This document shows positions 52,668-55,688 of a stretch of DNA of 64,000 bases, piece by piece; position 1 is the first letter of the stretch; the number at the start of each line of letters is the position of its first letter. The stretch lies in NCBI RefSeq assembly GCF_003334765.1, contig NZ_QOWT01000021.1. One strand, 5' to 3'. The notes under the pieces were generated by a model. It was given only the letters and a program-made list of their open reading frames with translations, searched no databases and was not told where the DNA came from. The position numbers and the translations under genes are program-made. The stretch comes from Escherichia coli (GTDB lineage: Bacteria > Pseudomonadota > Gammaproteobacteria > Enterobacterales > Enterobacteriaceae).

Positions 52668-52705
52668 AAAACACTCCTTTAAGACAGTTTTGACTGGCTG
52701 TGATA

Positions 52706-52738
52706 AAGGTTAAACCTTCCAGCAAGGGGAAGGTCAAG
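52706..52738 (-). promoter_or_regulatory. copA promoter with CueR (MerR-type) operator: TTGACC -35, 19-bp spacer containing the dyad CCTTCC-N7-GGAAGG (52715-52733)
   Basis: Minus strand reads TTGACC-TTCCCCTTGCTGGAAGGTT-TAACCT; the long spacer and dyad are typical of MerR-family activated promoters. Confidence 0.88.
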
Positions 52739-52928
52739 AAATTAATAAACCAGGCGGGTAAAAGTCCGTAAAGATTAAAAAATCGGCTCGATTTGCATCA
52801 GGATTAGACATTTATCTCTTTGTTTTCCTGTAGTTAAGTTGCGGGTGCTAAGTTAAATCAGGATGCCTGAAAATCGGCACCGGGGTGAGGAATTACCTCC
52901 CGCATCTATAAAAAGGAGTTAACAAAAG

Positions 52929-53861
52929 ATGTTAGATGCAAACAAATTACAGCAGGCAGTGGATCAGGCTTACACCCAATTTCACTCACTTAACGGCGGA
53001 CAAAATGCCGATTACATTCCCTTTCTGGCGAATGTACCAGGTCAACTGGCGGCAGTGGCTATCGTGACCTGCGATGGCAACGTCTATAGTGCGGGTGACA
53101 GTGATTACCGCTTTGCACTGGAATCCATCTCGAAAGTCTGTACGTTAGCCCTTGCGTTAGAAGATGTCGGCCCGCAGGCGGTACAGGACAAAATTGGCGC
53201 TGACCCGACCGGATTGCCCTTTAACTCAGTTATCGCCTTAGAGTTGCATGGCGGCAAACCGCTTTCGCCACTGGTAAATGCTGGCGCTATTGCCACCACC
53301 AGCCTGATTAACGCTGAAAATGTTGAACAACGCTGGCAGCGAATTTTACATATCCAACAGCAACTGGCTGGCGAGCAGGTAGCGCTCTCTGACGAAGTCA
53401 ACCAGTCGGAACAAACAACCAACTTCCATAACCGGGCCATAGCCTGGCTGCTGTACTCCGCCGGATATCTCTATTGTGATGCAATGGAAGCCTGTGACGT
53501 GTATACCCGTCAGTGCTCCACGCTCCTCAATACTATTGAACTGGCAACGCTTGGCGCGACGCTGGCGGCAGGTGGTGTGAATCCGTTGACGCATAAACGC
53601 GTTCTTCAGGCCGACAACGTGCCGTACATTCTGGCCGAAATGATGATGGAAGGGCTGTATGGTCGCTCCGGTGACTGGGCGTATCGTGTTGGTTTACCGG
53701 GCAAAAGCGGTGTAGGTGGCGGTATTCTGGCGGTCGTCCCTGGAGTGATGGGAATTGCCGCGTTCTCACCACCGCTGGACGAAGATGGCAACAGTGTTCG
53801 CGGTCAAAAAATGGTGGCATCGGTCGCTAAGCAACTCGGCTATAACGTGTTTAAGGGCTGA
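52929..53861 (+). CDS. glsA: Glutaminase 1 (310 aa)
   Basis: Full-length match MLDANKLQQAVDQAYTQFHSLNGGQNADYIPFLA; serine-dependent glutaminase family. Confidence 0.96.
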   Translation: MLDANKLQQAVDQAYTQFHSLNGGQNADYIPFLANVPGQLAAVAIVTCDGNVYSAGDSDYRFALESISKVCTLALALEDVGPQAVQDKIGADPTGLPFNSVIALELHGGKPLSPLVNAGAIATTSLINAENVEQRWQRILHIQQQLAGEQVALSDEVNQSEQTTNFHNRAIAWLLYSAGYLYCDAMEACDVYTRQCSTLLNTIELATLGATLAAGGVNPLTHKRVLQADNVPYILAEMMMEGLYGRSGDWAYRVGLPGKSGVGGGILAVVPGVMGIAAFSPPLDEDGNSVRGQKMVASVAKQLGYNVFKG

Positions 53862-53863
53862 TC

Positions 53864-55156
53864 ATGATGAACACGGAAGGTAATAACGGTAACAAACCTC
53901 TCGGTCTATGGAACGTCGTTTCCATCGGCATTGGGGCAATGGTGGGGGCGGGGATCTTCGCGCTGCTGGGGCAGGCTGCATTGCTAATGGAAGCCTCGAC
54001 CTGGGTCGCCTTTGCTTTTGGCGGTATTGTGGCGATGTTTTCCGGTTATGCCTATGCGCGTCTGGGGGCGAGCTATCCCAGCAATGGCGGCATTATCGAC
54101 TTCTTTCGTCGCGGATTAGGCAACGGCGTCTTTTCGCTGGCGCTCTCGTTACTGTACCTGTTGACGCTGGCGGTGAGCATCGCCATGGTCGCCCGTGCTT
54201 TTGGCGCTTATGCCGTGCAGTTTTTGCATGAAGGCAGCCAGGAGGAGCACCTTATTTTGCTCTACGCGTTGGGGATCATTGCGGTGATGACGCTTTTCAA
54301 CTCCTTAAGCAACCATGCGGTAGGGCGGCTGGAAGTGATCCTCGTCGGCATTAAAATGATGATCCTGTTATTGCTGATTATTGCCGGTGTCTGGTCGCTG
54401 CAACCGGCGCATATTTCCGTCTCTGCGCCCCCCAGCTCCGGTGCGTTCTTCTCCTGTATTGGGATAACTTTCCTTGCCTATGCGGGCTTTGGCATGATGG
54501 CGAACGCGGCGGATAAAGTGAAAGATCCGCAGGTCATTATGCCACGGGCGTTTCTGGTGGCGATTGGCGTTACCACGTTGCTTTATATCTCGCTGGCACT
54601 GGTTTTGCTTAGCGATGTATCGGCATTAGAGTTAGAAAAATATGCCGATACCGCCGTAGCGCAGGCTGCTTCTCCGCTGCTCGGGCATGTGGGTTATGTG
54701 ATCGTCGTCATCGGCGCTTTACTGGCGACGGCTTCAGCCATTAACGCGAACCTGTTCGCCGTGTTTAACATCATGGACAACATGGGCAGCGAACGCGAAC
54801 TGCCGAAGCTAATGAATAAATCCCTGTGGCGGCAGAGTACCTGGGGCAACATTATTGTCGTGGTGTTGATTATGCTGATGACGGCGGCACTGAATTTAGG
54901 CTCACTCGCCAGCGTTGCCAGCGCCACCTTTTTGATTTGCTACCTGGCGGTGTTTGTGGTGGCGATCCGCCTGCGTCATGATATTCACGCCTCGTTGCCG
55001 ATTCTTATCGTTGGTACGTTGGTGATGTTGTTGGTGATCGTTGGCTTTATCTACAGTCTGTGGTCCCAGGGTAGCCGTGCGTTGATATGGATTATTGGCT
55101 CACTCTTACTCAGCCTTATTGTGGCAATGGTCATGAAGCGCAATAAAACCGTATAA
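53864..55156 (+). CDS. ybaT: APC-family amino-acid transporter (430 aa)
   Basis: 12-TM APC sequence; directly follows glsA with a 2-nt gap. Confidence 0.93.
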   Translation: MMNTEGNNGNKPLGLWNVVSIGIGAMVGAGIFALLGQAALLMEASTWVAFAFGGIVAMFSGYAYARLGASYPSNGGIIDFFRRGLGNGVFSLALSLLYLLTLAVSIAMVARAFGAYAVQFLHEGSQEEHLILLYALGIIAVMTLFNSLSNHAVGRLEVILVGIKMMILLLLIIAGVWSLQPAHISVSAPPSSGAFFSCIGITFLAYAGFGMMANAADKVKDPQVIMPRAFLVAIGVTTLLYISLALVLLSDVSALELEKYADTAVAQAASPLLGHVGYVIVVIGALLATASAINANLFAVFNIMDNMGSERELPKLMNKSLWRQSTWGNIIVVVLIMLMTAALNLGSLASVASATFLICYLAVFVVAIRLRHDIHASLPILIVGTLVMLLVIVGFIYSLWSQGSRALIWIIGSLLLSLIVAMVMKRNKTV

Positions 55157-55280
55157 CATCTCTCTGTGCGCAGTACTTCCTGTATTATTGTGGTGGCGGT
55201 CGATATTCGCACTGGCAAAAAAACGTGCTTGAATATCTGTTGAAACCCTTTAACAAAGCACAGGAGGCGTTGCGCGAACG

Positions 55281-55688
55281 ATGAACATCAGCGATGTAGC
55301 AAAAATTACCGGCCTGACCAGCAAAGCCATTCGCTTCTATGAAGAGAAGGGGCTGGTGACGCCGCCGATGCGCAGCGAAAACGGTTATCGCACCTACACG
55401 CAGCAGCATCTCAACGAACTGACCTTACTGCGCCAGGCACGGCAGGTGGGCTTTAACCTGGAAGAGAGCGGCGAGCTGGTGAATCTGTTTAACGACCCGC
55501 AGCGGCACAGCGCCGACGTCAAACGGCGCACGCTGGAGAAGGTGGCGGAGATCGAACGACACATTGAGGAGCTGCAATCCATGCGCGACCAGCTGCTGGC
55601 ACTGGCGAATGCCTGCCCTGGCGATGACAGCGCCGACTGCCCGATTATCGAAAATCTCTCCGGCTGCTGTCATCATCGGGCAGGGTGA
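55281..55688 (+). CDS. cueR: MerR-family copper-responsive regulator CueR (135 aa)
   Basis: N-terminal MerR HTH ([25 protein letters not shown]) and C-terminal metal-binding [10 protein letters not shown]. Confidence 0.97.

Follow-up and report, generated by a model that had tools for sequence, protein, structure and literature searches.

A CueR operator lies in the DNA between copA and glsA of Escherichia coli, and the gene for the copper sensor itself has been torn away from it. The favored account, to which a probability of about 0.8 is assigned, is that a canonical operator serves copA, that inserted cargo separated it from cueR, that glsA-ybaT within this cargo answers to acid-resistance regulators, and that the copper induction of glsA-ybaT is indirect. 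The window, a 64-kb (64,000-nucleotide) stretch of E. coli DNA, contains the features in Table 1.

Protein identities were assigned with NCBIfam equivalog models and their curated cutoffs, and on CueR the ZntR, CadR, and MerR models all scored below their cutoffs. The translation of cueR contains both Cu(I)-ligand cysteines, Cys112 and Cys120 (...ANAC(112)PGDDSADC(120)PIIEN...). Gene coordinates and NCBIfam matches bear out the earlier note, which had described the operator at copA as split from cueR by glsA-ybaT: the end of the dyad lies 2547 bp from the cueR ATG, and the copA-glsA intergenic region spans 261 bp (52668-52928). The 3.4 kb tested (52400-55800) shows 100% identity to E. coli K-12 MG1655. 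Of 5426 complete E. coli genomes, 5417 have a match over at least 80% of this segment; however, this count does not demonstrate the K-12 layout, because genomes with an island between ybaT and cueR also reach the 80% threshold. An Rfam scan of 52400-55800 (E <= 1) returned no RNA family, and the idea that the intergenic regions encode a riboswitch or small RNA was therefore dropped.

Table 1. Features of the copA-cueR region (window coordinates).
Feature	Coordinates	Strand	Basis
copA, Cu(I)-exporting P-type ATPase, gene under this operator	50163..52667	minus	NF007952, 1745.7 bits (cutoff 1316)
copA promoter	52707..52737	minus	-35 TTGACC 52737-52732; spacer 52731-52713 (19 bp); -10 TAACCT 52712-52707
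CueR operator, perfect 7-7-7 dyad ACCTTCC-N7-GGAAGGT	52714..52734		read from the sequence; conserved across Enterobacteriaceae loci
Glutaminase gene upstream region, apparently cargo-derived	52739..52928	plus	homology to other genera ends at 52738; 43.5% G+C in the 52600-52999 profile window; GadW/GadX/RpoS-bound site, presumably ~52854-52887
glsA (ybaS), glutaminase A, glutamine-dependent acid resistance	52929..53861	plus	NF009020, 560.5 bits (cutoff 395)
ybaT, APC-family amino-acid permease	53864..55156	plus	TIGR00909, E = 9.7e-46, under the family cutoff
Relic, last ~100 nt of an HlyD-family type I secretion adaptor gene	55186..55284	plus	frameshifted by a 1-nt deletion; 92% identity to the 3' end of the intact O157:H7 gene, 91% to E. 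whittamii
cueR, Cu(I)-responsive MerR-family regulator	55281..55688	plus	NF007590, 308.6 bits (cutoff 244); TIGR02044, 207.5 bits (cutoff 147.4)

In the MerR-family mode of action, CueR sits on an over-long 19-bp promoter spacer, and Cu(I)-loaded CueR deforms the DNA, bringing the -35 and -10 elements into line for RNA polymerase. Binding of CueR and copper-dependent activation have reportedly been demonstrated by experiment at this exact sequence. Judged by its bases, the 21-bp dyad is the canonical CueR operator of the copA promoter. The minus-strand context reads cTTGACC-ttccccttgctggaaggtt-TAACCT, with a spacer in the over-long range of 19-20 bp that characterizes MerR-type promoters. ACCTTCC...GGAAGGT lies over this spacer with no mismatch (dyad centre 52724, spacer centre 52722), and the gene served is an efflux gene, whose ATG lies 47 bp from the end of the dyad. 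CTTGACCTTCCCCTTGCTGGAAGGTTTAACCT is found on the minus strand upstream of copA, within the K-12-identical segment. The element is the same as the known E. coli copA promoter/CueR operator, with no difference (Petersen and Moller, 2000; Outten et al., 2000; Stoyanov et al., 2001), and the published CueR consensus is ACCTTCCC-(5)-TGGAAGGT with a 19-bp spacer (Permina et al., 2006).

The core dyad CCTTCC-N7-GGAAGG (CCTTCCAGCAAGGGGAAGG), which the earlier note had placed at 52715-52733 in the copA promoter, was read there directly and is the single match in the window, also at one mismatch. With up to one mismatch, the chance expectation is 0.07, and 7 of 100 shuffles gave one match. The extended dyad likewise occurs once at 0-2 mismatches. 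These coordinates were also said to be those of a 19-bp spacer containing the dyad; they are those of the dyad, itself 19 bp long, whereas the true spacer is 52713-52731. Relative to this spacer, the dyad is shifted 2 bp towards the -35 element and therefore overlaps that hexamer by 2 bp. A sigma-70 scan with spacers of 16-18 bp misses the copA promoter, as expected, because it is of the MerR type. TTGACC-N19-TAACCT is unchanged in 54 of 83 loci, a set comprising the cross-species loci and three E. coli records.

Across the Enterobacteriaceae, copA and cueR form a tight divergon in 48 of the 73 species loci in which copA was found, with a copA-cueR gap of 87-227 bp and cueR starting about 10 bp beyond the copA -35 element. 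Ten other genera, aligned or read, show ...GGTCAAGGGGGAAAT-ATG(cueR) or a close variant, and an exact dyad match is missing in four of the 48 divergon loci. In Escherichia, homology to other genera ends directly after GGTCAAG, at 52738; the DNA to the right lacks homology to the ancestral cueR side, and within the cross-species locus set glsA and ybaT occur in Escherichia loci only. G+C content is ~0.53-0.56 inside genes and drops to 0.435 in the profile window that covers the sequence upstream of glsA; there is no strong anomaly at the insert, so that composition alone would miss the insertion. The Salmonella copA-cueR divergon has its operator and promoter as in E. coli but lacks ybaS and ybaT (Permina et al., 2006). 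By comparison with it, the inserted cargo is a feature of E. coli. For example, S. enterica subsp. arizonae has no ybaS/ybaT, a copA-cueR gap of 109 bp, and one degenerate half-site (GGTTAAGG).

The ancestral state in the family was probably a compact divergon of copA and cueR, in which the cueR start codon lay ~10 bp past the copA -35 element. In the Escherichia lineage, foreign DNA would have entered exactly that 10-bp gap, bringing glsA-ybaT together with a TolC/SiiEA/ABC/HlyD type I secretion island. In K-12, the island would later have been lost; what remains of it, directly before cueR, is 99 bp from the end of the HlyD-family gene. This order of divergon, insertion, and island loss is the one that we infer.

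With ~10 bp between the -35 element and the cueR start codon, the ancestral cueR mRNA would have had to start on the copA side of the operator or inside it. In this respect, the ancestral divergon resembles the mer operon of Tn21/Tn501: the regulator gene starts ~10 bp beyond the operator, and regulator transcripts would therefore cross the operator or start in it. In the mer divergon, where the merR and merT promoters are divergent and the layout is like that of ancestral copA/cueR, MerR represses its own promoter. In contrast, cueR lies 2.5 kb away in E. coli of the K-12 type and 27.7 kb away in O157:H7, and the geometry for MerR-style self-control is thus gone in E. coli.

The region upstream of glsA offers a candidate source of glsA-ybaT expression. 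A ChIP-exo peak for GadW, GadX, and RpoS, labelled as upstream of ybaST, is published at MG1655 510790-510823. It presumably maps to the site given in Table 1 through a 776-bp offset between NC_000913.2 and NC_000913.3, the sole backing for which is the 'Upstream' label in the source table, because in.3 coordinates the peak would lie inside copA. A gadXW double knockout changed ybaS expression, whereas the single knockouts had no significant effect. Overexpression of YdeO induces ybaST, which is responsive to acid-resistance regulators. The intergenic region also contains a direct repeat, ATCAGGAT, and two imperfect inverted repeats, none of which could be matched to a known binding consensus.

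The earlier note had proposed that copper status might cross-talk with glsA-ybaT expression through the divergent copA/glsA promoter region. The cross-talk itself is borne out by the literature, although the route is not. As later papers report, Djoko et al. (2017; PNAS 114:6818) found ybaS/ybaT up-regulated under copper stress and required for glutamine-dependent copper rescue or tolerance; the same study is reported to link the damage that copper does to glutamate synthase with a depletion of glutamate. Deletion of ybaST confers copper sensitivity (Kim et al., 2022; PMC9628877). Given the published induction, expression unchanged by copper, the outcome that the note had set against its own proposal, does not hold. 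Both studies addressed the same locus from the same starting point, the position of ybaS-ybaT between cueR and copA, and asked the same question; however, the published work did not attribute the induction to CueR, whereas the note suggested the shared promoter region as a possible route.

Direct or semi-direct control, in which Cu-loaded CueR at the copA promoter raises glsA-ybaT transcription, is judged quite improbable. Copper induction of ybaST, which later papers attribute to Djoko et al. (2017), speaks for it, as does the proposal of ybaS and ybaT as candidate members of the CueR regulon (Permina et al., 2006), although a 2024 review states that the copper regulation of ybaST is not directly tied to CueR. 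For glsA-ybaT to have a CueR promoter, an operator would have to lie in a 19-bp-spacer promoter facing the gene, and the single dyad present serves the leftward copA promoter only. From the centre of this dyad, the distance is 205 bp to the glsA ATG and ~145 bp to the GadW/GadX/RpoS site, and the DNA right of 52738 is cargo. A second CueR site facing glsA was rejected, as none occurs within three mismatches; in 52739-55280, the other dyad-like match is one 3-mismatch site inside ybaT (53896-53916), and the six 3-mismatch matches in the window are within the chance range.

Two routes could nevertheless carry such an effect. Strong leftward copA transcription could leave negative supercoils upstream (the twin-domain effect), and over 130-190 bp it is physically possible for supercoiling to couple the divergent copA and glsA promoters. 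Alternatively, transcription from a vestige of the rightward promoter of ancestral cueR (TGTGATAAA, 52699-52707, beside the copA -10) could read through the operator into glsA. The need for ancestral cueR mRNA to start on the copA side of, or within, the operator is consistent with this second route. So is the retention in E. coli of the TGTGATAAAGGTTA block, which is unchanged in Salmonella arizonae and reads TGTTATAAAGGTTA in Citrobacter and other genera; however, the conserved CTGT is equally explicable as the copA transcription start region, and GATAAA, the candidate hexamer, does not end in the conserved T. Escherichia also lacks 29 bp of the copA leader, including a TTGACC motif common to most other genera, a loss that looks like decay of cueR-side signals rather than their retention. 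The sigma-70 scan of the copA-glsA intergenic region passed no rightward consensus promoter. No relevant ChIP-exo study of the CueR regulon turned up in a literature search, and the SMRT-Cappable-seq supplements (Yan, 2018) do not mention glsA, ybaT, or cueR.

In the favored account, Cu(I)-loaded CueR would switch on leftward copA transcription only, and glsA-ybaT would have arrived with their own upstream region, from which GadW/GadX and RpoS, not CueR, would drive them. Because these acid-resistance regulators would act from that region, the published copper induction of ybaST is most likely indirect, and copper may reach ybaST through a stress-regulator route.

The opposite end of the cargo bears on how cueR itself is transcribed. 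RefSeq annotates 55187-55284 as a frameshifted, incomplete pseudogene. The AGGAGG that serves cueR as ribosome-binding site lies in this HlyD relic, whose stop codon shares bases with the cueR ATG (ATGA). The intact HlyD-family gene, which matches TIGR01843, is still present in 960 of 5426 E. coli genomes. In O157:H7, where the order is copA<|>glsA-ybaT-tolC-siiEA-ABC-hlyD-cueR, it overlaps the cueR ATG.

These junctions raise the possibility, doubtful but the strongest of the alternatives, that cross-talk runs in the reverse direction: K-12 cueR, with no strong promoter of its own, would owe most of its transcription to read-through that starts at the acid-induced glsA-ybaT promoter, and acid would raise CueR and so prepare the copper regulon. 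What precedes cueR is the tail of a gene rather than a promoter region, and the ATGA overlap in island-bearing strains is the layout of co-transcribed genes. Scans between ybaT and cueR found no plus-strand terminator-like hairpin with a T-run and, in 55157-55280, no plus-strand sigma-70 consensus promoter; the fold of the spacer shows no significant structure (z = -1.29). Even so, a weak cueR promoter is possible, since K-12 reads TTGAAT at 55229-55234 and island-bearing strains read TGGATT there. A ybaS-ybaT-cueR operon has been predicted (Permina et al., 2006), and at pH 2.5 cueR, copA, and cueO rise along with ybaST, while a cueR deletion is acid-sensitive (Kim et al., 2022). However, induction of copA and cueO at low pH could reflect more available copper, and more CueR without copper should not induce copA.

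A broader reading joins this read-through to the insertion history and is considered unlikely as a whole. The 10-bp gap between the copA -35 element and cueR would be a recurrent landing site for foreign genes in the Enterobacteriaceae, each insertion would sever cueR from its operator-overlapping promoter, and K-12 cueR would be expressed mainly by read-through from acid-induced glsA-ybaT. Its landing-site part draws on unrelated cargo in 25 of 73 species, in every case joined within 0-3 bp of the end of GGTCAAG, with the operator duplicated in some of them. If this reading were true, the amount of copper sensor would depend on acid stress, and the published acid sensitivity of cueR mutants would have a mechanistic explanation.

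Published work already covers the operator, the order of the genes, and the link between copper, glutamine, and acid, and copper/acid cross-talk at copA/ybaST was tested and published in 2017 and 2022. What is added here concerns evolution: E. coli stands apart from its relatives, its copper-sensor gene having been torn from its operator by cargo. How copper induces glsA-ybaT and how cueR comes to be transcribed may have a modest bearing on gut E. coli facing combined acid and copper stress in the host.

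The arrangement described in the earlier note, in which a CueR operator precedes copA and cueR itself is displaced, is confirmed by sequence and annotation, and its gene coordinates agree with both open reading frames and RefSeq. Positions 52400-55800 match E. coli K-12 MG1655 with 100% identity. Of 5426 complete E. coli genomes, 5417 contain a hit spanning 80% or more of this interval; because the part to the left of the ybaT-cueR spacer alone makes up ~82% of the query, this count says nothing about the frequency of the K-12 layout. CopA, GlsA, and CueR score above the curated cutoffs of NCBIfam equivalog models, and the Cu(I)-ligand cysteines, Cys112 and Cys120, are present in translated CueR. 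For YbaT, an APC-family permease, the family-model match lies below cutoff. Within copA (minus strand, 52461-52467), the slippery heptamer CCCAAAG lies near codon 70, and the joined CDS that NC_000913.3 places there, labelled "soluble Cu(+) chaperone", corresponds to CopA(Z), a frameshift product already known.

Features of the copA-cueR region in window coordinates
Feature	Position	Strand	Basis or relation
copA	50163-52667	-	ORF and RefSeq annotation
copA -10	52712-52707	-	sequence read on copA strand
copA spacer, 19 bp	52731-52713	-	sequence read on copA strand
copA -35	52737-52732	-	sequence read on copA strand
glsA (formerly ybaS)	52929-53861	+	ORF and RefSeq annotation
ybaT	53864-55156	+	ORF and RefSeq annotation
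cueR	55281-55688	+	ORF and RefSeq annotation
ybbJ	first base directly after cueR		convergent with cueR

The sequence CCTTCCAGCAAGGGGAAGG, read directly at 52715-52733, is the sole match to the dyad in the 64 kb with one mismatch allowed (0.07 expected), and with one more base on each side (52714-52734) it forms the perfect 7-7-7 dyad ACCTTCC-N7-GGAAGGT. On the copA strand, its context is cTTGACC-ttccccttgctggaaggtt-TAACCT. The earlier note errs only in taking 52715-52733 for the promoter spacer; these coordinates belong to the dyad, which overlaps the -35 element by 2 bp. The element at 52707-52737 is the published copA promoter; the consensus and the 19-bp spacer rule are quoted in Permina et al. 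(2006), and 54 of 83 retrieved loci (the cross-species set and three E. coli records) carry exact TTGACC-N19-TAACCT.

A link between copper and glsA-ybaT (ybaST) was proposed in the earlier note, and both the observation and its interpretation are already in the literature. Permina et al. (2006) described a ybaS-ybaT-ybbI operon (ybbI being cueR), named both ybaS and ybaT as candidates for the copper regulon, and reported a Salmonella copA-cueR divergon without them. According to three later papers, Djoko et al. (2017; PNAS 114:6818) found that copper stress raises ybaS/ybaT expression and that glutamine rescue from copper requires YbaST, because copper inactivates glutamate synthase. At pH 2.5, cueR, copA, and cueO increase together with ybaST; cueR deletion lowers acid survival, and ybaST deletion causes copper sensitivity (Kim et al., 2022; PMC9628877). 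These papers make the cross-talk real and published. The evidence does not support a route in which CueR acts on the shared intergenic region; the proposed interpretation is supported in part.

Other regulators are documented upstream of ybaST. YdeO overexpression induces the pair, and ChIP-exo peaks for GadW, GadX, and RpoS lie at MG1655 510790-510823 (Seo et al., 2015). The glsA start is at 511641 in NC_000913.3. Taking the offset between genome versions as 776 bp puts the peak near window positions 52854-52887, some 145 bp away from the centre of the operator (52724). The "Upstream" label in the peak table fits this conversion, because in NC_000913.3 coordinates the peak would sit inside copA. 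No second CueR-like site facing glsA was found, nor did the region match any Rfam family or the glsA upstream region contain a rightward sigma-70 promoter by consensus scan. In the reading we favour, with a probability of roughly 0.8, CueR at 52714-52734 would control copA only, whereas glsA-ybaT, as inserted cargo, would be driven from its own GadW/GadX/RpoS-bound upstream region, and its copper response would be indirect.

The glsA upstream region also contains an exact 8-nt direct repeat, ATCAGGAT, at 52797-52804 and 52857-52864 (60 bp spacing), the second copy lying inside the inferred GadW/GadX footprint. A 15-nt imperfect inverted repeat (52837-52851 and 52893-52907) flanks this site on both sides. 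Escherichia sp. MOD1-EC7003 (locus L004, 6351-6578) has lost the glutaminase and kept the permease: glsA is internally deleted, with residues 1-46 and 266-310 alone detectable, and ybaT is intact.

Directly upstream of cueR, positions 55186-55284 (99 bp) share 92% identity, with a 1-nt deletion, with the 3'-terminal 100 nt of a gene for a HlyD-family type I secretion adaptor; the intact gene matches TIGR01843. E. whittamii and E. coli O157:H7 have an intact copy, whose stop overlaps the cueR start as ATGA. In RefSeq the K-12 stretch is a pseudogene flagged as frameshifted and incomplete, and the E. albertii relic is more decayed. The O157:H7 order, copA<|>glsA-ybaT-tolC-siiEA(20 kb)-ABC-hlyD-cueR, leaves ~27.7 kb between cueR and its operator. 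Among 5426 complete E. coli genomes, 960 carry the HlyD-family gene, and in these the full island (tolC, the 20-kb siiEA adhesin gene, ABC transporter, and adaptor) survives. A relic in K-12 beside intact genes in O157:H7 and E. whittamii indicates that K-12 is a deletion derivative. In K-12, the secretion-gene tail supplies both the ribosome-binding site of cueR (AGGAGG) and the 99 bp that precede the gene. Such a gene tail before cueR, the absence of any detected plus-strand terminator or consensus promoter in 55157-55280, and the joint rise of cueR and ybaST in acid favour a reverse coupling, compatible with the main explanation, in which cueR is expressed via read-through from ybaT; we regard this as possible, though tentative.

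The far side of cueR is a second variable spot. The cueR and ybbJ stop codons abut in K-12 with no bases between (55688/55689), the O157:H7 junction (locus L082, 21529-24159) holds a 2.6-kb island with a lipoprotein and a YadA-family adhesin, and inserts of ~3.3 kb are found in many species of Citrobacter and Kosakonia.

The ancestry of the left junction was traced in 80 species loci fetched around cueR relatives, with six neighbour genes mapped by tblastn; copA was found in 73, the denominator below. In 48/73, copA and cueR form a divergent pair separated by 87-227 bp, with ~108 bp the commonest distance, resembling a mer-style divergon. The typical junction, ...AAGGTTAAACCTTCCATCAAGGGGAAGGTCAAGGGGGAAAT-ATG(cueR), places the cueR start codon ~10 bp beyond the copA -35, and in this layout the regulator's transcripts must start within the operator or on its copA side. 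E. coli, E. albertii, and Escherichia sp. MOD1-EC7003 align with other genera from the copA ATG to GGTCAAG and diverge completely at window 52738/52739; glsA and ybaT were detected in Escherichia loci only. Escherichia also lacks, at window ~52688, ~29 bp of copA leader present in most other aligned genera (columns 53-81 of A1, the cross-genus copA-side alignment). Most genera carrying this segment share a TTGACC motif in it, preceded in Salmonella, Enterobacter, and Pseudenterobacter by GGTCA to give the inverted repeat GGTCA-N-TGACC; it is possibly a leader hairpin or an old cueR -35. Its loss speaks against CueR-dependent coupling of glsA-ybaT, be it mediated by supercoiling that arises from divergent copA transcription or by a rightward relic promoter (TGTGATAAA at 52699-52707), as does a 2024 review stating that ybaST copper induction is not directly associated with CueR. 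The relic promoter, moreover, has a poor hexamer, and we consider such coupling improbable.

Unrelated cargo of 0.6-7.7 kb separates operator and cueR in 25/73 species, always with a junction 0-3 bp past GGTCAAG (loci L009-L063). In one locus (L042), two full operators flank the insert, and the duplicate of the promoter points at three minus-strand genes of that insert; in four others (L012, L020, L038, and L051), partial operator copies adjoin cueR, and several Citrobacter species have a new TATAAT ~35-40 nt before cueR. E. coli is one instance of this pattern, and, from these comparisons, the gap of 10 bp separating the cueR start from the copA -35 appears to be a recurrent insertion site in Enterobacteriaceae.
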